Shown here: positions 9,629-28,116 of the stretch, one piece after another
Position numbering within the stretch: position 1 is the stretch's first letter
Layout of the letters: every line of letters begins with the position of its first letter
Source of the DNA: a virus
Length of the DNA stretch: 64,000 nucleotides
IMG/VR virus record: IMGVR_UViG_3300028800_000059
Span: 96,001-160,000 of that record
Reading direction: 5' to 3' (one strand)
Translations under genes and position numbers: made by a program
Notes under the pieces: model-generated
Database searches by the model: none
What the model was told of the DNA's origin: nothing
Seen by the model: the letters and a program-made list of their open reading frames with translations, nothing else

Positions 9629-11155
9629 TTATTCAGAAAAAATCATCTGTGCCGCCTTGGTATCTTTATCGCCATTATAAGACGACAACACCACACGAAA
9701 TCCCCAAAGTCTTCTAACATGAAGAATTGCTTCCATGGCCATTGGCAAATCCAGAGGAACCATATTGTATCTATTGTGGCGAAGATATAAAGTTCTGTCG
9801 CCATCCAAATCTATATCTTCCACTAAAATTCTTGGCAATGTAGTATGAACATCATTTTGTTTTGCTAACTTATGCCGAATGTTTCGATAACCTTCATCGT
9901 CATGAGTTTCAGAAACAATGTAATGATGGGAATCCTTCAAAGGATTGTCCTCAATAGCAGCCAACTTCATGTCTCTAATAACCTTTGGGCTCAGGAATTG
10001 TAGAATGAAACTTTCGTCTTTATAGTTTTTCATGGCATCATCTAGAACTTCCTGCCAACTATTTCCAATCAAATGTGGAAACCACTGTTTATCTTCACCA
10101 GTAGGATTTTCACAAATTCTTTTTATATCCTGAAAAATATTAATACCTAAAGCATATGGATTGATGCCATTATAATGTGGGTCATCCATTTCTCTTTGAT
10201 ACACAACACCAGAATGGGACCTGAAAAATTCCAACATCGATCCTTCGGTTATCATGCCATTATCATACAATTCATTCATCAGATGATAATGCCAGAAAGA
10301 TGCCCATCCTTCATTAGCGACTTTGGTTTGGAACTGTGGCCAGAAATATTGAGAAATCTTTCTGACTATCCTTACAATTTCTCTTTGCCAAGTCAAAAGA
10401 GTTGGTGAATTCTTTTCAAGAAACAATAAAATATTTTCTTCTGGCTCTGGCAACATCAACTGTTTTCTTTGAGTAGCATTGGTCTTTGTTAATAGCGAAG
10501 GACGATTTTCAGGAACGGGCCAAAGTTCGCTGATACGACTTTGATAATAATCATCCCTTTCTTCCAATCGCATCTTTTTTTCTTTTTCAGATTTGTCTCT
10601 GACTCGTTTCACCCGATCAAATCCAAAAGTTTCCAATGTATGACATGAATCTAGAAGTTCCTCGACGGCCTTTTCTCCATATTTCACTTCACATTCAGCA
10701 ATATATTTGTTGGCATAAATCAGAAAATCAATAATATTCTCGGCGTCTGTCCATTGTTTAAATAGATAATTGTTTTTGAAGAAACTATTGTGTCCATAAC
10801 AAGCATGGGCAATGACCAAACATTGCATCGTTGCAGAATTTTGTTCCATGAGATAAGAAATACAAGGGTTGGTATTCGTTACTACTTCATAGGCCAATCC
10901 CATATGTCCTTTTTGATAGGCCTTTCTTTCCCGGGAGAAAGTCTTGCCAAATTTCCAATGATGATACATGACCGGCAAGGCATGTGTGGAATATCCTGCC
11001 AACATTTGATCCGAAGAAATAATTTCTATCTGATTTGGATAACAATCAAGATTGTATTTCCCAACAGCAATCTTAGAAATTTCCTCATCCATCAGGTTGA
11101 GTAATTCGAAATCCCAATCGCCGTTGTTAACCAAAAGAGGTTTATTTGTTGACAT
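9629..11155 (-). CDS. spoVR: SpoVR family protein (YcgB)
   Basis: YPNQIEII, YHHWKFGK, LAYEVVTN, HACYGHNSFFKNN, KVANEGWASFWH and INPYALG. Confidence 0.95.
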   Translation of the reverse strand: MSTNKPLLVNNGDWDFELLNLMDEEISKIAVGKYNLDCYPNQIEIISSDQMLAGYSTHALPVMYHHWKFGKTFSRERKAYQKGHMGLAYEVVTNTNPCISYLMEQNSATMQCLVIAHACYGHNSFFKNNYLFKQWTDAENIIDFLIYANKYIAECEVKYGEKAVEELLDSCHTLETFGFDRVKRVRDKSEKEKKMRLEERDDYYQSRISELWPVPENRPSLLTKTNATQRKQLMLPEPEENILLFLEKNSPTLLTWQREIVRIVRKISQYFWPQFQTKVANEGWASFWHYHLMNELYDNGMITEGSMLEFFRSHSGVVYQREMDDPHYNGINPYALGINIFQDIKRICENPTGEDKQWFPHLIGNSWQEVLDDAMKNYKDESFILQFLSPKVIRDMKLAAIEDNPLKDSHHYIVSETHDDEGYRNIRHKLAKQNDVHTTLPRILVEDIDLDGDRTLYLRHNRYNMVPLDLPMAMEAILHVRRLWGFRVVLSSYNGDKDTKAAQMIFSE

Positions 11156-12458
11156 TTATATCCCTTGAAAAGAGGTCTCGGAAAACAGGGAATATATCCG
11201 CCGGCGAGGATATAGAGCGACAATGAAATATGGTTGGAAACTTGGCCGCTATTTCAGAATATTTTCTCTGTAGCGATGAAAAGAAACTGGTCGTAACACC
11301 CCACATATTCGTTTCTTCATTTCGCATATGTCCAACTTGCACATAGGCAAAATACTGAATGTAAGGAATGAGTTTGTTCACAATGATTTCTTCGCATACA
11401 TCATCATCCAAATTAGAATTATCTCCATCAGAACATTGACTGATATAGATATTCCAATCGGACGTAGGATAACGTTTCTGAATAATTTCGGACGTTAAAG
11501 TAAGCGCCGAACTAACAACTGTTCCACCTGTTTCTAATGAATAGAAAAAATCATGTTCATCTACTTCATAGGCATCGGTCGTGTGTCTAATGAATACCAC
11601 ATCAACCTTTTCGTATTTACGATTGAGGAACATGTGAAGCAACATAAAGAATCTCTTGGCCAGGTCTTTTTCGTATTCGCCCATTGAACCCGACACGTCC
11701 ATTAGACAAAACATGACGGCCTTGGTGATTGGTTTTGGTTGCTCCACAAAGAGTTTGTATCGCAAATCAAAATCATCAATAAAAGGAATAGAGTCTCGTT
11801 GTTTTTTAAGTTCTACAATTCTCTGACCTAAATCAAAATGTAATGTATTGTCGATATCAGGCGCCCATCTTTGTTTTTCCAATTCCTCGATTTCTTTATC
11901 ATAACCAGCAGCAAGGGCAATCGTCCGAGCCAGCGCCTGAATATAGGACTTGCTCACATCCAAATTAGCAGGGATGCCAACCGTCGTAAATCCTGACCGA
12001 CACCATTTGTTTTCAGTCAGGTCTTTGAGTGCCGTCTTGACAAGATTTGGAAGTCTCAAATCATCAAAAAGAAAATCTAGAAATTCATCGCGGCTCAGAG
12101 TGAATTGAAATTCGTCCAATCCATCTTCACCATCTGGGCTTCCTGGACCTCTGGTTGAATCTTGTTCTGATGGCTTGCGAATTTTATCTTTACGTTGATA
12201 GTGTTTGTTTCCAGTCACCACATAATCATGAAAACCATCTTTCGATGATTGTCTAAACGTAGGTTCAGAAATTCCTTTTTTAGGTATGGAGACATTTCCA
12301 CCACCAGCATCCGTGATCGATCTACCAGGATTGCCACCAATAGTTTTCTTCAAGGCTTTTTTAATCGCTTCCCTGGTACGATCAAGGAACTTTTTGCGAT
12401 TAATTAAGTGTTTGGACTCTTTGCCCTGAGGTCTTCGATCTAAAATGATCGTGGACAT
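11142..12458 (-). CDS. yeaH: YeaH/YhbH (UPF0229, DUF444) vWA-domain protein
   Basis: DRR...NRKKFLDR, FCLMDVSGSM (MIDAS), FIRHTT, GGTVVSSAL and SDGDN. Confidence 0.95.
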   Translation of the reverse strand: MSTIILDRRPQGKESKHLINRKKFLDRTREAIKKALKKTIGGNPGRSITDAGGGNVSIPKKGISEPTFRQSSKDGFHDYVVTGNKHYQRKDKIRKPSEQDSTRGPGSPDGEDGLDEFQFTLSRDEFLDFLFDDLRLPNLVKTALKDLTENKWCRSGFTTVGIPANLDVSKSYIQALARTIALAAGYDKEIEELEKQRWAPDIDNTLHFDLGQRIVELKKQRDSIPFIDDFDLRYKLFVEQPKPITKAVMFCLMDVSGSMGEYEKDLAKRFFMLLHMFLNRKYEKVDVVFIRHTTDAYEVDEHDFFYSLETGGTVVSSALTLTSEIIQKRYPTSDWNIYISQCSDGDNSNLDDDVCEEIIVNKLIPYIQYFAYVQVGHMRNEETNMWGVTTSFFSSLQRKYSEIAAKFPTIFHCRSISSPADIFPVFRDLFSRDINVNK

Positions 12459-12511: not shown

Positions 12512-14452
12512 TTAATTAGATTTCCTGACGCGGAGATACCAATCAACAACGATACGGGTCTGTCTTTCTGAATATCCACGGGCCTTCATTCGTGATACGA
12601 ATTCACTATGTTTCTTTTCGTGTTCCGCAGATGATTTTTTATCAAACGAAATCACTGGCAAAATTTCATCCGTTGCCGCGAACATTTTCTTTTCGATGAC
12701 TTCGCGAAGCTTTTCATAGCTGGTCCAATGTGGATTTTGTCCATTATGAGTTCCACGATATCGCAAAGCGAATTTGACAATTTCATTTCGGAAATCTTTT
12801 TCGTTTACGATACCAGAAGGTTCTTCGATTTTTTCAAGTTCGCGATTGAGTGTTTCATTGTCGTACATTTCACCGGTATCTGAGTCTCGATAATCACGAT
12901 CCTCGACCCAATGATCGGCATAATCAATATATTTGTCGAATAGATTTTGTCCATATTCTGAATATGATTCCAGATAAGCAATCTGAATTTCCTTGCCGAT
13001 GTATTCAGAATATTTGTCATGCAACCACTGGCGATATTCCAACAGAATTGCTTCATCCTCTTCGGAAAATTGTTCCTGGATAATAGAGTCTTCCAATATT
13101 CTTAGTAGATGAACAGGATTGGCTCCCACTTCCATTGGGTCATAATTGAACACCTTGGAAAGAATTTTGTAACTCCAACGAGTAGACAATCCTTCCATGC
13201 CTTCATTGACGCCAGCATCGTCGCGATATTCCTGGATTGGTTTGATGTTTTGATCTTTATCTTTCAGATTTTCGCCGTCATAGATTTTCATCTTGGAAAA
13301 CACATTGCTATTGGCAGGAACTTGTAGGCGAGAAAGAACAGCCAATTGCGCCAACATTTCTAGCGTCTTTGGTGTGCAAGGAGCCTGATCCAAACTGGAA
13401 TCTTTCAGCAATTTATTGTAAATGAAAATTTCATCGCTGACTCGGAGACAATAAGGAACCTTGACCATATAAACACGATCCAGGAAGGCTTCATTGTTGC
13501 GATTGTTTTTGAAAGACTGCCATTCTGATTCATTCGAGTGACTTAGAATAATTCCTTGGAATGGAATACCAGAAATTGCTTCGGTGCCGTTGAAATTTCC
13601 TTCCTGTGTCGCCGTCAACAGAGGATGAAGAATTTTGATTGGTGCCTTGAACATTTCAACGAATTCAAGAAGCCCCTGATTGGCTCGGCATAGTCCACCA
13701 GAATAACGATAACAATCTGGATCGTCCTGGGCAAATTTTCCTAGACCTCGAATATCGACCTTGCCAACGAGACTTGAAATGTCCTGATTGTTTTCGTCGC
13801 CTGGTTCGACTTTGGCGATGGCGACTTGCTTTAGGCGATTAGGATACATTTTAACAACAGAGAATTGACTTAGATCGCCTTTGGCGTCCTTAGTCAATCG
13901 CTTGACGGCCCATGGGCTCAAACGCCCTAGAATATAACGACCTGGAATATTGTAATCCTGTTCTAATCGAGTCCGCCAAACAGTAGGATCAAAAAGCCCT
14001 AAAGGAGATTCGAAAACTGGAGAAAGTTCATCGCCATATTTCAAAACATAAATTGGTTCACGTTCCATCAATTCTTTTAGCCGTTCAGCCAAACTTGATT
14101 TGGCACTTCCTACAGGCCCCAACAGATACAAAATCTGTTTACGTTCTTCCAGTCCTTGGGCGGCATGTTTGAAAAAGCCAACAATATTTGCAATGACTGA
14201 TTCCATGCCATAGAAATCAGAGAAAACAGGATATGTTTTGATGGTTCGATTTAGGAAAATCCGACGCAATCTTTCGTCCTTGCTCGTATCTACCAGCACA
14301 GGCTCTCCGATTGCTTTGAGCATTCTTTCGGCAGCACTAGCATACGCCGAAGAATCTGTTTTGCATAATTCAAGATAGTCTGTCAAGCTTAGTTCATTTT
14401 CGGTTTTAACTTCAAAAGCATTCTTAAAATCAGCTAACAGATTTTTTTCCAT
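12512..14452 (-). CDS. prkA: PrkA/YeaG family AAA+ serine protein kinase/ATPase
   Basis: QGLEERKQILYLLGPVGSAKSS, PGDENNQDISSLVGKVDIR, ANQGLLEFVEMFKAPIK and HSNESEW. Confidence 0.96.
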   Translation of the reverse strand: MEKNLLADFKNAFEVKTENELSLTDYLELCKTDSSAYASAAERMLKAIGEPVLVDTSKDERLRRIFLNRTIKTYPVFSDFYGMESVIANIVGFFKHAAQGLEERKQILYLLGPVGSAKSSLAERLKELMEREPIYVLKYGDELSPVFESPLGLFDPTVWRTRLEQDYNIPGRYILGRLSPWAVKRLTKDAKGDLSQFSVVKMYPNRLKQVAIAKVEPGDENNQDISSLVGKVDIRGLGKFAQDDPDCYRYSGGLCRANQGLLEFVEMFKAPIKILHPLLTATQEGNFNGTEAISGIPFQGIILSHSNESEWQSFKNNRNNEAFLDRVYMVKVPYCLRVSDEIFIYNKLLKDSSLDQAPCTPKTLEMLAQLAVLSRLQVPANSNVFSKMKIYDGENLKDKDQNIKPIQEYRDDAGVNEGMEGLSTRWSYKILSKVFNYDPMEVGANPVHLLRILEDSIIQEQFSEEDEAILLEYRQWLHDKYSEYIGKEIQIAYLESYSEYGQNLFDKYIDYADHWVEDRDYRDSDTGEMYDNETLNRELEKIEEPSGIVNEKDFRNEIVKFALRYRGTHNGQNPHWTSYEKLREVIEKKMFAATDEILPVISFDKKSSAEHEKKHSEFVSRMKARGYSERQTRIVVDWYLRVRKSN

Positions 14453-14489
14453 TTTATTCCTTTGACAACAGGATATTGCAGTTTCAGAT

Positions 14490-14495
14490 TATTTA
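14490..14495 (-). promoter_or_regulatory. T4-type late promoter core (TAAATA) upstream of prkA-yeaH-spoVR
   Basis: CATAAATA on the minus strand directly after a terminator and ~37 nt before the prkA ATG. Confidence 0.5.
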
Positions 14496-14498
14496 TGC

Positions 14499-14539
14499 AA
14501 AATAAAACGTGGTCCATGTAAAAACATGGTCCCACGTTT
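14499..14539 (-). terminator. Rho-independent terminator
   Basis: AAACGTGG/CCACGTTT plus CCATGT/ACATGG stems followed by TATTTT. Confidence 0.7.
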
Positions 14540-14558
14540 CAGAAATTGTAGCCAGAAA

Positions 14559-14786
14559 TTAAGCGCGGCGCTTGGTGCTAGCCAGCTTGTATACGGCTAC
14601 CTTACGGCCGGTTGTTGAATTGACGCGCCAATCGGTAGTGATTGGGTGGCCATCCTGGCGAAGTTCATCAATGCGAGCGGTAATATTGTGCCCGCCTGTT
14701 CGGCTTCGTGCCTGAGCAACCGAAAACGAGTTTTTCTTTTCTAGCGTAGTTAGAAGCTTGGACTTGATTGAAGTTTTCTTGGACAT
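14559..14786 (-). CDS. Small winged helix-turn-helix DNA-binding protein
   Basis: 75 aa; FSVAQARSR...ITARIDELRQDGHPI...YKL; AAGGA Shine-Dalgarno. Confidence 0.7.
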   Translation of the reverse strand: MSKKTSIKSKLLTTLEKKNSFSVAQARSRTGGHNITARIDELRQDGHPITTDWRVNSTTGRKVAVYKLASTKRRA

Positions 14787-20411: not shown

Positions 20412-22013
20412 CTAAGGTTTGTAGAACACAAACACTGGCTCATATTTTCGATACAATCCATTCACGCGACAAATATTTTTCGTTGTCGCCTTAATATCCC
20501 CATTTTCATCGGTCACTAATCTATTCCCTCCCGGCATTTGGCTCATAGCCATTTTCTCCACGCCGCGATATTCCATGCCTAGATCGGTAAGTATATTGAT
20601 AGAGTCCTGTTCGAGTGGCAGGCGCTCCCCGGAGAAAACCACATCTGCAATATTCCACAAGAGATATCTATCGTTCCGGAGCCAATGGAATGCCGTCCAG
20701 AGTGTAGGTTCCAAAAAGCCTTTTTTCCAGGCATCATATTGTCCAAATTTTTTATAGGATTGTCCTTCATCTTCTGAATAAGCCTCCTTCGAAAAATATG
20801 GTGGGCTAGTGAACACCATATCCACTTTCCCTTTCCACTTCTGGAAGTTTTTGTCCTGAGCAATTTCCTCAGACCCTAACTGATAAATTTCATAGGAATT
20901 CAGATGGGGAAAAAGTGACGAGCCCTTATTAGTTTTATCATTAAAAAAATCAGCCAATTCGTGATATTTCGTCCGGCCGCCCACAGTATCATGATCCCGA
21001 TTAGGATCAGTACCGATATAATGAATGTTCCGATCATCGATAGAAAGAGCGCCAAGAAGACGGCCACCCCAACCAGCAGAAGGGTCATATAAAACCACTG
21101 TCTCATTGTTTTTGCAATGCTCCGTATATTTTCCATAGAGATATTTAGCCGTTAGTGGAGGGAAGTTAGTCGCATACTGACAATACGACACGCGAAACGC
21201 CTTCAGACCAATTGGGAAAAGTTTTTGGCCGTGTTTGAAGACTCGGATATTGTATGTCTTATGTTTGCTGCCCGCCACATTAGTCAGAGCCTTGGCTGGA
21301 ATAATATTCTGTAAAACAAACAAATCAGCCTCATTCAAAAAGAAATTTTTTCGATCTTTGAGTTCCTGATTATATCCTGTGTATGTTGCTGCCTCTTCCT
21401 TGGGCGCAATCCAATAGTCCCATTCTCCATGGGCACGATATTTTTTCTCGAATGTTTGAATCCAATCCTGGGCGTCCCTGGTGCAAGGAAGAAATTCGAC
21501 ACTTTCTTTATCCATAACCTTAGCAGGATTTGAATAGGCATAAAAAGAATCTCGCTTAAAATGCCGCGATGCATAGGTTACGAAGGTGTCTAGGAGGATT
21601 GGGTCGGCAAAGTAATCATAGATAGATCGCCCGGCATCAGGGTCTTTCGTGTAGTTAATACGAGTTTTCATCATGGTTGGAAAGAAACCATTGATTACGC
21701 CCGACATTTCAGACTGTGTGTTGTGAATGATATCGTTGTTGCCAGTCAGTTCATCCTTGACCACGAATTCATTGACTGGATAACCAATCATATGGTTCAT
21801 AAGATCGATCATGGTTTCTTCGGACTTGCCTACAACAGGTGGCGTGCCCAACTTGTCCCAGGCATACACGACCACTTCCCGCAGTTCGACACACCACTGG
21901 CGAAATTCGTCTTTGGACATCCATAGGACCTGTTCAAAGGTCTTGTTGACCTCGTGATTTAACAGATAGGTATTTTTCTCATAGAAAAATTTATTCGCCA
22001 TCAAGGGTTCCAT
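20412..22013 (-). CDS. SAM-dependent amino-(N4-C/N6-A type) methyltransferase with long N-terminal domain
   Basis: YDPSAGWGGRLLG SAM-binding motif and FTSPPYF catalytic motif. Confidence 0.8.
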   Translation of the reverse strand: MEPLMANKFFYEKNTYLLNHEVNKTFEQVLWMSKDEFRQWCVELREVVVYAWDKLGTPPVVGKSEETMIDLMNHMIGYPVNEFVVKDELTGNNDIIHNTQSEMSGVINGFFPTMMKTRINYTKDPDAGRSIYDYFADPILLDTFVTYASRHFKRDSFYAYSNPAKVMDKESVEFLPCTRDAQDWIQTFEKKYRAHGEWDYWIAPKEEAATYTGYNQELKDRKNFFLNEADLFVLQNIIPAKALTNVAGSKHKTYNIRVFKHGQKLFPIGLKAFRVSYCQYATNFPPLTAKYLYGKYTEHCKNNETVVLYDPSAGWGGRLLGALSIDDRNIHYIGTDPNRDHDTVGGRTKYHELADFFNDKTNKGSSLFPHLNSYEIYQLGSEEIAQDKNFQKWKGKVDMVFTSPPYFSKEAYSEDEGQSYKKFGQYDAWKKGFLEPTLWTAFHWLRNDRYLLWNIADVVFSGERLPLEQDSINILTDLGMEYRGVEKMAMSQMPGGNRLVTDENGDIKATTKNICRVNGLYRKYEPVFVFYKP

Positions 22014-22395
22014 ATTCTCTTTCTAATCGTTCTAATGAATCTTGAAGTTTAGCATAGGCCTTTGGTGCTGTCAAATCCATTTTGGAAAGACCTGTACCAA
22101 CACCATCAGTAGGAATAATAACGGTCTGTCCAAGTTTTAAATGTAATTCAATTTGTTTAATGGGAAATATTATTTGATCCCAAAATTTATCAATTTGTGA
22201 ATCCATAAAAAATGATTCGACAGTTCTTTCAGGTTTCCATTTGGTTGGAATTCCTATGGCATTTGGCTCGCCGCGCATTTCTTTTGCCTGACCACCCAGA
22301 CCTCGACGCTGCATATTATCTCCAAACACATAAATTGTTTTGGGATTATCCTGTAGATTTTTTCTTGTAATCCATTTTTGATGTTTGATTGGCAT
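21991..22395 (-). CDS. Uncharacterised phage protein (IYVFGDN...GGQA...AIGIPTK type)
   Basis: 134-aa ORF overlapping the methyltransferase start. Confidence 0.65.
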   Translation of the reverse strand: MPIKHQKWITRKNLQDNPKTIYVFGDNMQRRGLGGQAKEMRGEPNAIGIPTKWKPERTVESFFMDSQIDKFWDQIIFPIKQIELHLKLGQTVIIPTDGVGTGLSKMDLTAPKAYAKLQDSLERLEREYGTLDGE

Positions 22396-23169
22396 TTAAG
22401 CACCTACATTCCAAAATAACGCACCACTTGATGCATACGCCTTTACAAAACTCCAAGCCTTGGCATCATACGTAGGTGCCGAAGGAAACGGAGGAATATC
22501 ATCGCCTTTCACAGGGCGATCAAATTTATATGGCGACACCCAAAGCTTGGCTCGTCCAATCTGTTCCGGTTTCATCTTATGCCCAACCTGCACCACGTTG
22601 AAATTTGCGTTAGGCCAGGCCAATTGCAGACCACGAGAAAGAGTTCCACTTGATCCTACTGTCCAAACCTCTTTGGGTTTGATATCGATTGCCTGCGCGA
22701 CCTTCACAATGGCTTGTAGAATAACAGGGTGTTCCAACCCAAGCGGAAGTACCATTCGTCTAGTAGGCTCCACGATGGCATATTCTCTGGCGCGGGCCTG
22801 AGTCACATTCAACATACCATCAGGAACCCAATGATATTCAGCACCCAAAGCAATTCCTTTTTTCTGATAATCCGTATAATTTTCTGGGTCTCGTTTCGCC
22901 ATGAAAAGAATAGTTCGTTTTCCATATTTCGAACAGGCTGCCGGCAAAGATATTTGGGCATATCCTGTTGCTGGACACGACCCAAAGACCCATTTATCAA
23001 TTTTTGGATAGGCATTAATCAGCGCATCAAGGAAACGAATCTTTGATCCGTATCCAAGTTTATCGTCACGCACTACGTTGATATAACGATCATGATCAAT
23101 CGCAGTGGGTTCCACGTAAGGTTTAGGATATGGATCGTTCCACTTACTTATGTCGAATTGCATCTTCAA
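22396..23169 (-). CDS. PLP-dependent fold-type-II enzyme (cysteine synthase/ACC deaminase-like)
   Basis: VVRDD...GSKIR (PLP lysine), Gly-rich phosphate loop VGSSGTLSRGL and YDAK. Confidence 0.7.
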   Translation of the reverse strand: MKMQFDISKWNDPYPKPYVEPTAIDHDRYINVVRDDKLGYGSKIRFLDALINAYPKIDKWVFGSCPATGYAQISLPAACSKYGKRTILFMAKRDPENYTDYQKKGIALGAEYHWVPDGMLNVTQARAREYAIVEPTRRMVLPLGLEHPVILQAIVKVAQAIDIKPKEVWTVGSSGTLSRGLQLAWPNANFNVVQVGHKMKPEQIGRAKLWVSPYKFDRPVKGDDIPPFPSAPTYDAKAWSFVKAYASSGALFWNVGA

Positions 23170-23302
23170 TATCCTCTAGGCGTCGGTGAATTTTTTCAGT
23201 TTCCATAAGTAATCTGACCAACATATGGGGAGTTCCCATCAAATCCTGTTCGGCCAGTTTATTAAACTGTCTCAGAGTAAGTTTTAATTCTTCACTCGGC
23301 AT
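23144..23302 (-). CDS. Small hypothetical protein (52 aa, below the ORF-track cutoff)
   Basis: Translated by hand: MPSEELKLTLRQFNKLAEQDLMGTPHMLVRLLMETEKIHRRLEDIEDAIRHK; fills the gap between two genes. Confidence 0.5.
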   Translation of the reverse strand: MPSEELKLTLRQFNKLAEQDLMGTPHMLVRLLMETEKIHRRLEDIEDAIRHK

Positions 23303-24521
23303 TTTCCATCCTTTGTATTAATTCAGGAGTCAACACAATGTCCACGACCAAATGAATACGATCCTCGGTTCCATTATTGATAGCGCGATGTGGCTTGCGA
23401 ATATCCAGATACCAACATTCGCCTTCTTTCATATTGACAGTGGTTGCCTTGCCATCAAAATCCCAGGACGTAAATTCAACACCAGGATTCGTCACAAGAG
23501 GGAAATGAAAACGCGCAAGTTTTCCAGGTGTCGCACCAAGATCAGGATCAACTTGATCGGTATGTCTTTCAAGTTCTCCGCCACCAGGCTTTAGTTTCAT
23601 TAAGCGAATGCGATGCACGTTGGTATAATCATCCTGTCCCAAAGATTTGAGAATAGGTTTTACGTGTTCCTCAAAGAAAGGCATGATGTAAGTATTTTGG
23701 ATGAAGAATTTTTCGTTCTTATGTTTCTCTTGCCACTTGGCATTCATTTCAATTGGTTTTTCAATGAAATTATAATCATTCTTATATCCACGAAGTGCCA
23801 GGGCACTCCAGGACCGTTCCTTGTTGTAATTGGAATAATGATCGGTGTAACTAATATCGAATCTGCGGCCATCAGGAAGTTGATTGGTAATATGTAATCC
23901 AAAATCTTTAATTGCCTTCCAATTGGCGGCACGAAACAAAACTCGTTTGACTCCAGTTTTTTCTAGTGGACTCAAAACAGGATGTTTACGGGGTTCCCAG
24001 GTTCCAGGCAAAGCGTAGATAGACGCCGGCATAGAATCTTCGCGGAAATAAATTCCCATGATCGATCCATAGGTGTCTATTTTCCCGCCAATATATTTGT
24101 AACCAATGGACAACAACATTTCATGTTTGGCTTGATCTTCACGCCAAGAATAAACCCAGGACGTTCCATAGGTAATCATAAACCAATTTTTGAACATTGC
24201 ATTTGAACAGGCGATGTGAGAATACACATTGTCGCCAGGCTCTTTATGGCCGATCACAACATCATCATAGGCAACGATATTGCCTTTAACCTTGACTCTT
24301 TTGACGCGCCAGATGGGTGTGTCTATACAACCTGTTTCATTAGAAAGTTTCAAATCCCCTTTTGATAAATCTTCGGCTATGCGATTTTTCTTATATTCAG
24401 CAAAGGGATTGCCACAGGCATACTTGTTATATTCGGCATAATGAGCCTCGATGGATTTTAGATAATCCAGGTCATATCCATGTTGCCATGGTTTAGTTTG
24501 TGCTGATAATGGTCCTGTCAT
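23292..24521 (-). CDS. Fusion: N-terminal GNAT-like domain plus C-terminal 2OG-Fe(II) dioxygenase (Asp/Asn beta-hydroxylase-like)
   Basis: C-terminus RIRLMKLKPGG...RHTD...RFHFPLVTNP...GECWYLDIRKPHRAIN...RIHLVVD gives the HxD...H triad; the GNAT call for the N-terminus is weaker. Confidence 0.75.
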   Translation of the reverse strand: MTGPLSAQTKPWQHGYDLDYLKSIEAHYAEYNKYACGNPFAEYKKNRIAEDLSKGDLKLSNETGCIDTPIWRVKRVKVKGNIVAYDDVVIGHKEPGDNVYSHIACSNAMFKNWFMITYGTSWVYSWREDQAKHEMLLSIGYKYIGGKIDTYGSIMGIYFREDSMPASIYALPGTWEPRKHPVLSPLEKTGVKRVLFRAANWKAIKDFGLHITNQLPDGRRFDISYTDHYSNYNKERSWSALALRGYKNDYNFIEKPIEMNAKWQEKHKNEKFFIQNTYIMPFFEEHVKPILKSLGQDDYTNVHRIRLMKLKPGGGELERHTDQVDPDLGATPGKLARFHFPLVTNPGVEFTSWDFDGKATTVNMKEGECWYLDIRKPHRAINNGTEDRIHLVVDIVLTPELIQRMENAE

Positions 24522-25144
24522 GTCGTCTTTATTGTAAGAGTTGATTTCTTATCGGCGGCTTCTAGTTTTTTCATAGCCTTCACTTTTCGCATGATTTTCT
24601 TCATGGTCTTGCGACGTTTTTCTTGTTTGATTTTCAGACTCAATGCCGGCACTCTTTCGGTAAACAAAATGCCATTGCAATGATCAACCTCATGTTGAAT
24701 CAAACGAGCCGTCAGGCCCGAGAAACGTCCTTTCAGCCATACGCCTTTTTCATTCTGCCAAATAGCATCTATCTCTTTGGCGCGTTGCACGTTTAAAAAC
24801 AACATAGGATAACTCAAACATCCCTCACTGTCAAGGAGTTTTTCTTCGCTGGAAACAACAATTTCTGGATTGAAAAATGCCTGGTGCTGTTCATCGGTGC
24901 CGACAACAAAAACTTTGACAGGAACTCCTACCTGGATTGCCGAAAGACCCAATCCCTTATAGTGTCGCATAGTCTGATAGAGCCGATGCACCAATTCTCC
25001 TGGATGCATCTGAGGATTATTGAAATTGAAGTCCTCTGGTACAGTTCTCAAAATTGGATTGTTTTCATCGACTAAATTGAAAAGCGTCAGCGTCTTGGTT
25101 TGATCCTGTGATCCGGTATCTATGCGGAGAAATTCTTCACTCAT
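24518..25144 (-). CDS. def: Peptide deformylase
   Basis: GLGLSAIQVG, EGCLS and QHEVDH motifs; AAAGGA SD before MSEEF at 25144. Confidence 0.95.
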   Translation of the reverse strand: MSEEFLRIDTGSQDQTKTLTLFNLVDENNPILRTVPEDFNFNNPQMHPGELVHRLYQTMRHYKGLGLSAIQVGVPVKVFVVGTDEQHQAFFNPEIVVSSEEKLLDSEGCLSYPMLFLNVQRAKEIDAIWQNEKGVWLKGRFSGLTARLIQHEVDHCNGILFTERVPALSLKIKQEKRRKTMKKIMRKVKAMKKLEAADKKSTLTIKTT

Positions 25145-25148
25145 TTTT

Positions 25149-25298
25149 TTAAGTTCCTTTAACCCATTCAGAATATGTCGTGGCATTACCTGCTAAAATT
25201 TCCTTATCAAATTCTTCTTGTAAAATTTCGTAGAGCGTTTTTTCCAAATCTAACACTGATTCTGAAATCTCACCCAACCAAAAATAATATGGCCACAT
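25149..25298 (-). CDS. Small hypothetical protein (49 aa)
   Basis: Translated by hand: MWPYYFWLGEISESVLDLEKTLYEILQEEFDKEILAGNATTYSEWVKGT; fills the gp46-def gap. Confidence 0.45.
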   Translation of the reverse strand: MWPYYFWLGEISESVLDLEKTLYEILQEEFDKEILAGNATTYSEWVKGT

Positions 25299-25300
25299 TT

Positions 25301-27025
25301 TTACACCTTTGTCATTTGAGAAAATTCATTTTTCGTTTCGAATTTAATAGCCGATCTAAATTTATCAAACAGAATATCCGTATGATGACTGATGATGAAA
25401 ATATTCACTTCTTCACCAAATTTTTGAATGATTTTCAAAAGCGCATCCGTGCCTTCCGGGTCCAGAGATGAATCAAAAACTTCATCCATAATCAATAGAT
25501 TCGTTGACACTGAATTTTTCAATTTGGCAATTGCTCGCCATGTGAACAAAAGAGCCAGATCAATGCGTTGTTTCTGTCCTTCTGAAAAACTTTCGTAAGT
25601 AAAATCGTCGCGGTGGCGACTCTTGATTTTTTCATTGAAATTTTCATCCAGCGTGAAATTAGCATAGAAATCCATGTCATCCAGATATTTGTTGACCAAC
25701 TTATTGATCACTGGAATATATTGCTTGATGATTTTTGTCTTCGGCCCATCATCCGACAAAAGATCAACCATGGCCTCATGATAGGAACGCTCATATATCA
25801 TTTCAGTTCTATCAGCATCCAAGGCAGTTAAATCCTTGATGGCATCATCTAATTGAGTTTGATAATCCTGGCCAGTGACAGGAGAGGCCCCTTTTAGGAC
25901 ACTGTTTTCATCTTGGAGTTTTTTGATATATTTTTCAATGGAATTGATTTGTTCATCAATCTTAGCCACTGATTTTTCATATTGAAGAATTTCACTCAAA
26001 ACCTTGGCAATTTCAGATCGGCGTTGTGTAAATTTGCCTAGATCGCTTTTAAGTTTGTCTCGACCTACTTCATATTTGTTCAACTTAATTTTTAAATCTT
26101 GGGTTGATTCCATTTTCTTGATGGGTGGAATTTCCTGTAAACAAGTCGGGCAGTTATCATTGTCTCGATAAAATTTCAATTGTTCTTTGTAAGTTTCAAT
26201 GTTGTGGTCAAATTTTCCACGATACCCTAACATGGCCTCAATTTTGTCGCTGTTTTCTTTTTGATCCAATATCGAATCTTTTAGAATTTTTATGTTATCA
26301 AGTTTGATTTGGCGATTATCAGCCAGGGCAGCGGCTTCGATATCGTGCTTATCAATTTCTTCCTGGTTCTTATCGATCTTGGATTGATTGGAGATTTTCA
26401 TATCCGCCAAATGCTGTTTCAGTAGACGAATTTTTTCATCCAAGAAACTCTTGGCCTTGCTATTATTTTCCAGAAGTTCTTTCAGAGCAATCAACTTCTG
26501 TTTGACCAACAAATTCATTGGCGCAAAAATTTGAATGTCCAAAATATCTTCAATGATGCCACGGCGTGCGCCAGTCGTCAATCTCATAAATGCCGAGGCG
26601 CCTTTGGCCGAACCAAGAATGACAATTTGATCGAAAGTCTTCTTCGACATTTTCAAGATAGACTTTTCCAGGTAATCTTGATAATCGCCTATCTTTGCAT
26701 CTTGTTTGACAAGCACCCCGTTTTTCCAAATCTCAAAAACAGCAGGCTTCAATCCTCGAATGATTTTGTATTTGTTAGTGCCAATGGAAAATTCCAACTC
26801 AACCACTAGTTCTTTTTGGTTGATCGAATTGATTAGCTGTGGCAGATTGATATTACGGAAAGGCTTCTTCCATAGAGCAAAATCAATGGCGTCTAAAATT
26901 TGTGATTTGCCATGCCCATTCTTTCCAACAATCAGAGTCGTGGAACTCTTATCCAAAACAATTTCAGTAAATGAATTGCCTGTGTTTAGGAGATTTTTCC
27001 ACCGTACCACATGAAATTTTATCAT
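25301..27025 (-). CDS. gp46: Recombination endonuclease subunit, Rad50/SbcC-like ATPase
   Basis: GKNGHGKS, CPTC zinc hook, FSEGQKQR signature and Walker B IMDEVFD. Confidence 0.96.
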   Translation of the reverse strand: MIKFHVVRWKNLLNTGNSFTEIVLDKSSTTLIVGKNGHGKSQILDAIDFALWKKPFRNINLPQLINSINQKELVVELEFSIGTNKYKIIRGLKPAVFEIWKNGVLVKQDAKIGDYQDYLEKSILKMSKKTFDQIVILGSAKGASAFMRLTTGARRGIIEDILDIQIFAPMNLLVKQKLIALKELLENNSKAKSFLDEKIRLLKQHLADMKISNQSKIDKNQEEIDKHDIEAAALADNRQIKLDNIKILKDSILDQKENSDKIEAMLGYRGKFDHNIETYKEQLKFYRDNDNCPTCLQEIPPIKKMESTQDLKIKLNKYEVGRDKLKSDLGKFTQRRSEIAKVLSEILQYEKSVAKIDEQINSIEKYIKKLQDENSVLKGASPVTGQDYQTQLDDAIKDLTALDADRTEMIYERSYHEAMVDLLSDDGPKTKIIKQYIPVINKLVNKYLDDMDFYANFTLDENFNEKIKSRHRDDFTYESFSEGQKQRIDLALLFTWRAIAKLKNSVSTNLLIMDEVFDSSLDPEGTDALLKIIQKFGEEVNIFIISHHTDILFDKFRSAIKFETKNEFSQMTKV

Positions 27026-28116
27026 TATGCCGACTCCAATGCCAAGGCATCCGAATGAATTTTACGCATCAGAGATTTTAGTTTCTGTGGGTCTAATTCC
27101 GTCGGACAAGTTGCGTCAATGGTTTCTTCCAATATTGTAACAATGTCTGATGATTTTTCGATCCCTTCTGTGGTGACTGAACCAGATGAATTTGAAGAAG
27201 GAGAATTATCAATATATTTTTCAACGATTGAAACATCGGCAACTCCAGCCTTGTATAGTGAATCTAAAAACACATCAAACCAATCGGGATGTTCCTTTTC
27301 GACAACCACAATTTTTACGTAACAATTTTTAGTATAAGAAAAATCCAACTTATTCAAATTTTCCAATGTCTCTTTTCTGTCGTCATATACAATTTTGTGG
27401 AACATTCGATAGGGATTTTTGATGAACTGTAAATCCAATGTGTCGGTATCCAATACATGAAAGCCACGTGGATCATTCCAATCAGCCCAAGTAATCTCAT
27501 AGGGATTTCCTAGATATGTGACAAGGCCATCCGTGGATCGATGATGAAAATGTCCACTTAGTACCATATCGAATTTATCAAACCATTTTCTTGGAGTAAT
27601 TCCAGTGTGACAAAAATTTCCTTTGTCCATTTCGAAACCAGCTATTTCCAAATGTCCCATTACCAATCGCGCATCAGTTTCACGCAATAGCTTTTCAGTT
27701 TCTCCAATGTTTGTAGGATTAACCCAAGGCAGCAAGATTGTTTTACGCCCATCCAGGTCTATCTCAACCGGGTCTGGATAAATTTTAACATTGGAATATT
27801 CAACGAAAATATCCTCAATGGCATTAGGCGTATTGAATGTTTTCAAAGGACAGTCATGATTGCCTGGAATGTAGATACAATCCACTTCCATTTGTTTAAG
27901 TGGATTGCCAAATCTCTTGTGAATGGTATCCAAAATCTGGAGATTTATGAATTTGCGATGCTCGACAAAATCACCAAGGCAAGCCATTTGCTTTATGTTG
28001 TGATCCTTTAAGTAGGGAAAAAACACATTCTCATAAAACTTGAAAAAGAATTCATTGAAAATTGGCGAAGCCTGGCGCGCTCCAAAATGAAGATCGGTTA
28101 TAATTGGAAGAAGCAT
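27025..28116 (-). CDS. gp47: Recombination endonuclease subunit, Mre11/SbcD-like
   Basis: TDLHFG, LGD, GNHD, GHLE and SGHFH phosphoesterase motifs. Confidence 0.96.
   Translation of the reverse strand: MLLPIITDLHFGARQASPIFNEFFFKFYENVFFPYLKDHNIKQMACLGDFVEHRKFINLQILDTIHKRFGNPLKQMEVDCIYIPGNHDCPLKTFNTPNAIEDIFVEYSNVKIYPDPVEIDLDGRKTILLPWVNPTNIGETEKLLRETDARLVMGHLEIAGFEMDKGNFCHTGITPRKWFDKFDMVLSGHFHHRSTDGLVTYLGNPYEITWADWNDPRGFHVLDTDTLDLQFIKNPYRMFHKIVYDDRKETLENLNKLDFSYTKNCYVKIVVVEKEHPDWFDVFLDSLYKAGVADVSIVEKYIDNSPSSNSSGSVTTEGIEKSSDIVTILEETIDATCPTELDPQKLKSLMRKIHSDALALESA

Follow-up and report, generated by a model that had tools for sequence, protein, structure and literature searches.

On balance, three genes at positions 20412 to 24521 of the window appear to belong to a conserved mobile module for the post-replicative hypermodification of a DNA base, by a route distinct from the thymidine-C5 pathways. 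By the window we mean the whole 64,000-nucleotide stretch analysed here, i.e., positions 96,001 to 160,000 of the IMG/VR virus record IMGVR_UViG_3300028800_000059. The genes encode a methyltransferase-fold enzyme of 533 amino acids (aa), MTase533, an enzyme of 257 aa that depends on pyridoxal phosphate (PLP), PALP257, and a 2-oxoglutarate (2OG)-dependent Fe(II) oxygenase of 409 aa, Diox409. The methyltransferase-fold enzyme and the PLP enzyme are the conserved core, and the oxygenase is a frequent third member. It is quite probable that the trio works as one system hypermodifying a nucleic-acid base. DNA is its likely substrate, because relatives carry fused ParB domains, because the related proteins gp52 and gp226 act on DNA, and because the family matches are to DNA methyltransferases. 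The specific aminocarboxypropyl or aminopropyl chemistry proposed below is offered tentatively and is in itself rather doubtful.

An earlier note on this DNA had joined the trio with two further open reading frames (ORFs), one for a 134-aa protein now assigned to DUF7831 and one of 52 aa, into a five-gene operon pathway that could hydroxylate, acylate and methylate a DNA base. Its idea of a hypermodified DNA base has gained from the homology of the PLP enzyme to gp52 of phage M6, while the five-gene scheme and the acylation step have fallen away. The operon pathway is not borne out, as the DUF7831 and 52-aa ORFs are insertions peculiar to this phage.

The PLP enzyme and the gp52 family

Judged by its sequence, PALP257 (22396-23169, minus strand) is a fold-type-II PLP enzyme homologous to the decarboxylases of DNA-tethered amino acids gp52 of Pseudomonas phage M6 and gp226 of phage ViI. 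The ORF opens with a TTG, and the recorded gene call starts two codons further in (255 aa), at the ATG at 23163, which is likely the true start. The Pfam match to PALP is weak (E 0.006), the PHROG match to phrog_7093 is strong (E 1.6e-31), and searches of the PDB sequences with the protein or with profiles returned weak TrpB and CysK matches only (E 0.02 to 2). A weak tblastn match of the PLP enzyme of Microcystis phage Mae-JY30 pointed to a 'threonine dehydratase' of Bordetella phage CN2, the gene for which has those for a radical-SAM 'photolyase', a P-loop kinase and a dUMP hydroxymethylase around it. With M6 gp52 this CN2 enzyme shares 81% identity. Profile alignment with hhalign joined the PALP257 family to the CN2 enzyme (probability 98%, E 2.4e-13) and to gp52 of phi_M6 (probability 97.5%, E 5.6e-12, 219 collinear columns), with K43 of PALP257 (GSKIR) aligned on K36 of gp52 (SFSK36IRG). 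PALP257 and the gp52/CN2 enzymes have SSGT, PFPxxPxYDxKAW and FWN[VI]G as common motifs. Within PALP257 the GSK lysine is K43 and the GSSGT loop spans aa 172-176; across 17 aligned homologues K43, S174, G175, Y234, D235 and K237 are invariant. The family is nearly confined to viruses.

Lee et al. 2021 (PMC8989533) established M6 gp52 and ViI gp226 as PLP-dependent decarboxylases of C-alpha-glycinylthymidine (C-alpha-GlyT) and O-serinylthymidine (O-SerT) within DNA and proposed K36 of gp52 as the Schiff-base lysine; this role is also summarised in PMC11472151. Enzymes of the gp52 family are known solely as decarboxylases, and the characterised ones act on DNA (PMC8989533). The window phage shares the decarboxylase-like enzyme and none of the machinery that surrounds it in those phages. 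A tblastn search of its genome with the CN2 PLP enzyme found PALP257 as the sole match (E 3e-7), and the other proteins of the CN2 cluster had no match at E <= 0.1 in this 98%-complete genome. The amino-acid:DNA transferase (AADT, the aGPT-Pplase2 transferase), 5-HMUDK, the radical-SAM isomerase and the ThyA-type hydroxymethylase are all missing from it. A thymidine-C5 pathway, with its kinase, transferase, radical-SAM enzyme and hydroxymethylase, was thus rejected. Since the hydroxymethylase is missing, C5 of thymine is an unlikely target; the target is probably an exocyclic amine.

Linkage and fusion of the three genes

The gene neighbourhood was compared in IMG/VR, where a scan with the oxygenase gave 42 loci and a scan with the PLP alignment 80 further ones. 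About 30 loci with a full-length oxygenase keep the order gp47, gp46, an optional peptide deformylase, oxygenase, PLP enzyme, an insert of 0-2 kb, methyltransferase, peptidase. In 61 of the IMG/VR loci the PLP gene is flanked by 4 kb or more on both sides; of these, 57 have a methyltransferase gene within about 2.3 kb of it and 45 an oxygenase. Three arrangements recur: oxygenase-PLP-methyltransferase downstream of gp46; PLP-methyltransferase alone, also downstream of gp46; and methyltransferase-oxygenase-(YunG-like ORF)-PLP elsewhere in the genome, away from gp46. The neighbourhood conservation on which the earlier note had made its proposal depend is thus found, in three gene orders. The linkage that it saw between methyltransferase, PLP enzyme and oxygenase stands, through both co-occurrence and fusions; the constancy of the oxygenase does not, as roughly a quarter of the lineages with the other two genes do without it. 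A scan of bacterial and archaeal genomes gave four loci on three metagenome-assembled genomes, three of them with an oxygenase adjoining the PLP gene and two also with gp46.

The YunG-like domain of the third arrangement (about 155 aa, a weak match to PF24585) is a fourth recurrent partner, encoded between the oxygenase and PLP genes (L097:7454-7918, L085:7453-7923). The window genome holds no credible copy of it. It was considered as a homologue of the GNAT-fold domain of Diox409 and rejected, as the two show no homology.

Fusions tie the enzymes more closely. A profile search with the PLP family through 1.84 billion representative proteins, clustered at 50% identity, gave 1456 clusters at E <= 0.001, the gp52-type enzymes included, and many of the proteins were long. 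Pfam scans of 20 of these relatives revealed two triple fusions in the order methyltransferase, Asp_Arg_Hydrox, PALP (P0367 of 1081 aa and P0378 of 1138 aa), five further proteins with methyltransferase and PALP, and six forms of the type found in Erythrobacter phage R6L, with PALP between or beside N6_N4_Mtase matches. There were also one oxygenase-YunG-PALP fusion (P0372), five YunG-PALP fusions and one fusion of PALP to ParB_N (P0500). The parts of P0367 matched the three proteins of the window by BLASTP at E 1e-28, 7e-45 and 1e-80. The fusion ORFs are free of internal stops and keep DPCAGWGGR, SPPY, GSKxR, SSGT and RH[TS]D. The junction of YunG and PLP domains itself recurs in at least six proteins (P0370, P0372, P0374, P0392, P0399, P0446). 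On its 18-kb contig, P0367 (L132:6520-9765) has glmU/glmS-like genes, two genes for resolvases or recombinases and one for a PemK toxin as neighbours, a context less suggestive of a lytic phage than of a bacterial integrative element at a site next to glmS.

Cultured phages provide a further form of fusion. A tblastn search with the PLP enzyme found three of them and no others, Erythrobacter phages R6L and ZS04 and Microcystis phage Mae-JY30, each time under genes annotated as DNA methylases. R6L gp1 is a single 810-aa ORF that runs through ParB, methyltransferase motif I, the PLP domain and motif IV; its PLP domain (aa 389-623) is complete and 42% identical to PALP257. The contiguous methyltransferase of Mae-JY30 aligns to residues 241-381 and 636-795 of R6L gp1, split around the PLP domain, which is therefore inserted inside the methyltransferase fold, between the positions that match residues 112 and 117 of the Mae-JY30 enzyme. 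In Mae-JY30 itself, ParB, methyltransferase and PLP enzyme are encoded by three consecutive genes. Neither R6L nor Mae-JY30 has an oxygenase beside the pair.

The methyltransferase-fold enzyme

MTase533 (20412-22013, minus strand; the recorded gene call begins at M5, 22001) consists of an N-terminal domain of about 270 aa (21204-22013), virus-only and of no named fold, and a catalytic Rossmann domain with the methyltransferase fold (aa ~282-533, 20415-21170). Its match to Pfam PF01555 reaches 22.6 bits at aa 397-532, under the gathering cut-off of 26.7, which several of its homologues and fusion partners pass. Other family matches are PADLOC MTase_II (E 7e-10) and phrog_12517 (E 2.3e-9). The motifs DPSAGWGG (aa 310-317) and SPPY (aa 403-406) contain most of the residues that are invariant in 29 sequences (D310, S312, G314, W315, G317, R318 and S403-P-P-Y406). 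In the AlphaFold2 (AF2) model (pLDDT 84.6) the C-terminal half is predicted to be a class I methyltransferase, and its nearest solved folds are the tRNA m2G methyltransferases Trm11, TrmN and Trm14 (Z 14.5-15.7), which also carry a (D/N)PPY motif.

The N-terminal domain had no match among the PDB sequences, and its relatives in the Atlas are virus clusters only, none of them named. It was also compared with gp51, the AADT of M6, and a similarity to it was rejected (hhalign probability 0.1%). One phage lineage carries two tandem paralogues of the 533-aa gene after the PLP gene (L085:8737-10335, 10272-11909).

The oxygenase and its GNAT-fold domain

Diox409 (23292-24521, minus strand) comprises a GNAT-fold domain (aa 17-165, 24027-24473), assigned by comparison of its AF2 fold, and a 2OG-Fe(II) oxygenase domain of the AspH/proline-hydroxylase type (aa 184-400, 23322-23972), assigned by PF05118 and by its fold. 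The PF05118 (Asp_Arg_Hydrox) match covers aa 199-395 with 49.5 bits, against a cut-off of 22.6. In the AF2 model (pLDDT 88.3) the C-terminal domain is a predicted double-stranded beta-helix that VIA places nearest to the nucleoside-antibiotic hydroxylase 7v4p (Z 14.8), human AspH (Z 14.7) and L-proline cis-4-hydroxylase (Z 14.4), in a Z range of about 14.3-14.8. Foldseek likewise returned L-proline cis-4-hydroxylase (4p7w, E 4.6e-10) and AspH (5apa, E 7.9e-9). The nucleic-acid oxygenases AlkB (Z 9.7) and NgTET1 (Z 9.4) share the fold and score below the amino-acid hydroxylases (Z > 14). Invariant in 30 sequences are H320, D322, H378, R388 and H390, with H320-x-D322 among the candidate metal and 2OG ligands.

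The GNAT-like character that the earlier note had guessed for the N-terminal domain is confirmed by the predicted structure, which VIA aligned to 2pc1_A (Z 11.2, rmsd 3.6, 141 residues aligned), 2fia_B (10.3) and SbzI (9.6). The acyl-CoA loop Q/RxxGxG/A between strand 4 and helix 3 is not present; in its position stands the glycine-free segment WRED-QAKHE (aa 125-133; consensus WAEDxxxxxxL). The domain is also missing from the fused forms, in which the match to Diox409 begins at aa 87-135. Both observations leave the acylation step formerly proposed for it without support.

Genome setting, gene layout and inserts

The source record is a 177,318-bp virus genome with completeness judged at 98%, and the virus is a T4-like myovirus. 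The genes gp46 (25301-27025, PHROG SbcC family, E 7e-148) and gp47 (27025-28116, SbcD family, E 2e-86) lie beyond the trio. The closest cultured phages by gp46, at only about 44% identity, are Synechococcus phages S-CREM1 and S-SZBM1 and Methylophilales phage Melnitz. A megablast search with the region turned up no near-identical relative among cultured phages, none of which holds the full-length 409-aa or 533-aa protein.

The four enzyme-sized genes and the 52-aa ORF described earlier were all found as minus-strand ORFs. In coordinate order their junctions overlap or abut by 23, 0, 26 and 11 nt. The motifs read from them (DPSAGWGG, SPPY, GSK, GSSGT and HxD...H) are all present in the translations, and the catalytic residues, the degeneracy of which would have spoken against the proposal, are instead invariant in the alignments of 29, 17 and 30 homologues for MTase533, PALP257 and Diox409. 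Since a promoter and terminator scan gave no more sites than shuffled sequence, the operon structure is read from the gene overlaps alone. NCBIfam had no match for any of the five ORFs, and MTase_II was the sole PADLOC match among them.

The 134-aa gene (21991-22395, minus strand), formerly called unknown, belongs to Pfam DUF7831 (PF25176, E 5.9e-43); its protein has no match among the PDB sequences. The gene lies outside the conserved module, inserted between those for the PLP enzyme and the methyltransferase, and among 126 related loci tblastn found no copy of it or of the 52-aa ORF. Of cultured phages, 101 have a DUF7831 homologue, and nearly all of these infect Alphaproteobacteria (Caulobacter 41, Rhizobium 25, Brevundimonas 8, Rhodobacter, Ruegeria), a distribution that hints at an alphaproteobacterial host for the window phage. 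The 52-aa ORF (23144-23302, minus strand) has no Pfam or PHROG match and occupies a 123-nt gap between the oxygenase and PLP genes; in relatives, which lack this gap, the oxygenase gene runs right up to the start of the PLP gene or overlaps it. It is doubtful that this ORF is a real gene. The gap between the PLP and methyltransferase genes of relatives holds a dCMP deaminase gene (L007:10053-10595) or up to four extra 2OG-Fe(II) oxygenase genes of PF13640/PF13759 (L003:9852-11767, 13495-14768).

A peptide deformylase gene (24518-25186, minus strand; PF01327, E 1.7e-36; 222 aa) overlaps the 409-aa gene by 4 nt and precedes the ORF set. Its product extends beyond the Pfam domain (aa 38-181) by an N-terminal extension of about 37 aa and a C-terminal tail rich in Lys and Arg. 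Many loci that keep the trio lack this gene.

Proposed pathway and alternative explanations

We hypothesize that the methyltransferase-fold enzyme would flip out a base, bind S-adenosylmethionine (SAM) and transfer its 3-amino-3-carboxypropyl group, not its methyl group, to an exocyclic amine (N6 of adenine, N4 of cytosine or N2 of guanine). Optionally, the AspH/proline-hydroxylase-like oxygenase would then hydroxylate the amino-acid-like side chain. The PLP enzyme would link to the free alpha-amine through a Schiff base and decarboxylate, and the end product would be a base with a cationic aminopropyl or hydroxy-aminopropyl group, which would keep host nucleases from acting. The same product could arise in a variant that starts with decarboxylation of SAM by the PLP enzyme, after which the transferase would work in the manner of spermidine synthase, an enzyme of the methyltransferase fold that uses decarboxylated SAM. 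A SAM-derived group is proposed because a gp52-type enzyme needs a primary alpha-amine beside the carboxylate on its substrate, and because the methionine-derived part of SAM is the only amino acid held by the minimal partner. Such a minimal system of PLP and methyltransferase-fold enzymes is seen in the T4-like lineages without an oxygenase, in R6L and in Mae-JY30.

Several points weigh against this proposal. The transferred group is deduced solely from the needs of gp52-type enzymes and from what the conserved partner could supply, and the base atom and the order of steps are proposals. The solved structures nearest to the catalytic domain of MTase533 belong to tRNA m2G and not DNA methyltransferases, and its PF01555 score stays under the Pfam cut-off. 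In phages of Vibrio, Bacteroides and Staphylococcus, close relatives of this domain occur as solitary genes with no PLP gene to accompany them; their motifs are the same, and their annotation is that of N4-cytosine methylases or DNA methylases. This makes simple methyl transfer a reasonable default, although plain methylation by the 533-aa enzyme itself is an assumption. The oxygenase is missing in 15 of the 57 loci that have both PLP and methyltransferase genes (about a quarter), and these loci are metagenomic, with partly redundant contigs, such that the counts overstate the number of independent events. The solitary relative in Vibrio phage 2.058.O adjoins a dCMP deaminase gene (L129).

If the default held for MTase533 as well, a true N4/N6 methyltransferase would methylate the base, the oxygenase would turn the N-methyl group into a hemiaminal or iminium, and the PLP enzyme would add a glycine-type carbanion and decarboxylate, which would leave an N-(2-aminoethyl) base. 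The domain order of the triple fusions (methyltransferase, oxygenase, PLP) follows such a sequence of steps, SPPY is a classic N4-cytosine signature, the solitary methyltransferases carry the same motifs, and phage pathways of a C5-methyltransferase with TET offer a parallel. We nevertheless regard this scheme as improbable: it fits poorly with the quarter of loci, R6L and Mae-JY30 in which no oxygenase adjoins the pair, the oxygenase scores nearer to amino-acid hydroxylases than to AlkB or TET, and enzymes of the gp52 family are known solely as decarboxylases (PMC8989533). The resemblance of the catalytic domain to Trm11, TrmN and Trm14 raises instead the question of the substrate, and the trio might act on RNA, e.g., the tRNAs of the phage, or on protein. 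A weak match of the relative P0414 to RNA cap guanine-N2 methyltransferase and the peptide deformylase gene adjoining the trio would agree with this, but relatives have ParB DNA-binding domains fused or adjacent, the PADLOC and Pfam matches are to DNA methyltransferases, the deformylase is not a constant neighbour, and the characterised relatives of the PLP enzyme act solely on DNA (PMC8989533). We thus consider a target other than DNA unlikely.

The genes could also be chance neighbours in a variable region, i.e., an orphan DNA methyltransferase, a metabolic PLP enzyme of the 1-aminocyclopropane-1-carboxylate (ACC) deaminase or D-cysteine desulfhydrase type, and a hydroxylase of proteins or amino acids such as marine phages commonly carry. 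The interval between gp46 and the peptidase gene does take inserts (dCMP deaminase, extra 2OG oxygenases, DUF7831), and aquatic T4-like phages commonly carry 2OG oxygenases and peptide deformylase as auxiliary genes. This explanation is very improbable in view of the repeated single-ORF fusions with intact catalytic motifs, among them the two triple fusions and the domain insertion, and of a linkage kept over three gene orders and unrelated backgrounds (a siphovirus, the Microcystis phage and the integrative element beside glmS). The near confinement of the PLP family to viruses also argues against this explanation.

Relation to known systems

The reading of the trio as a DNA hypermodification module has its closest counterpart in the M6 and ViI systems. 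Their gp52 and gp226 belong to the same PLP family, phrog_7093, with the aligned catalytic lysine and family-specific C-terminal motifs, and they too are encoded in clusters with adduct-building enzymes to which they are often fused. The partners differ: a 5-hmdU kinase, an aGPT-Pplase2 transferase and a radical-SAM isomerase there, a SAM-methyltransferase fold and an AspH-type oxygenase here. What is already known is thus the gp52 decarboxylase family in phage DNA hypermodification, and what would be new is a different, SAM-based installing enzyme ahead of it. With the phage N4/N6 amino-methyltransferases (PF01555; phrog_498/phrog_12517) MTase533 shares the Rossmann fold, motif I followed by motif IV, (S/C)PPY and the subsequent xxE-YS-D; unlike them, it has a 270-aa N-terminal domain in place of ParB, an obligate pairing or fusion with a PLP enzyme and the sub-cut-off Pfam score.

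For the proposed enzyme logic, wybutosine synthesis may serve as a lead. TYW2, a relative of Trm5, is an aminocarboxypropyl transferase with the methyltransferase fold, and TYW5 is a 2OG hydroxylase of the wybutosine side chain. The likeness is one of proposed logic only, as wybutosine synthesis modifies tRNA and involves no PLP enzyme.

In Synechococcus phage S-B43, CmoA, CmoX and CmoY make 5-carboxymethylcytosine, so that a methyltransferase fold with a partner installs a non-methyl group on DNA (PMC12783734). Like the C5-methyltransferase and TET systems, it is an example of a methyltransferase fold that, with co-encoded partners, installs a handle larger than methyl. Those systems employ a C5-cytosine methyltransferase with carboxy-SAM or TET, whereas the module described here has an SPPY enzyme of the amino type, an oxygenase of the AspH type and an obligate PLP enzyme. 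Phage Mu Mom, with a GNAT fold, takes glycine from Gly-tRNA and attaches it to N6 of adenine (PMC13219725). It resembles the GNAT domain of Diox409 as a GNAT-fold protein without classic acetyl-CoA use, and it acts on an exocyclic amine of DNA; unlike Mom, the Diox409 domain is fused to an oxygenase, lineage-specific and missing from the fused forms, and no sequence similarity between the two was detected. In line with the earlier remark that the combination was not recognised as a characterised pathway, no description of a methyltransferase-PLP-oxygenase system was found in the full-text literature searched, which covered few subscription journals and included PMC8989533, PMC11472151, PMC12783734, PMC13219725 and PMC8670742.

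Biological significance

The methyltransferase-PLP pair is common, being present on more than 100 IMG/VR contigs of T4-like phages. The known entry points to hypermodified phage DNA are 5-hydroxymethyl pyrimidines, 7-deazaguanine, Mom and C5-methyltransferases. If our interpretation is true, the pairing of an amino-methyltransferase fold with the gp52 decarboxylase family would add another. The fusion proteins are single-ORF versions of the system that can easily be tested in E. coli, and the module could yield new DNA-tailoring enzymes. A modification of this kind may affect restriction of aquatic viral DNA, the preparation of sequencing libraries from it and its nanopore or SMRT base calling. 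If the aminocarboxypropyl reading is true, it would be the first time that a SAM-derived modification of an amino-acid or polyamine-like kind is seen on a DNA base, and the modification would be abundant in aquatic T4-like phages and present also in siphoviruses and bacterial integrative elements.

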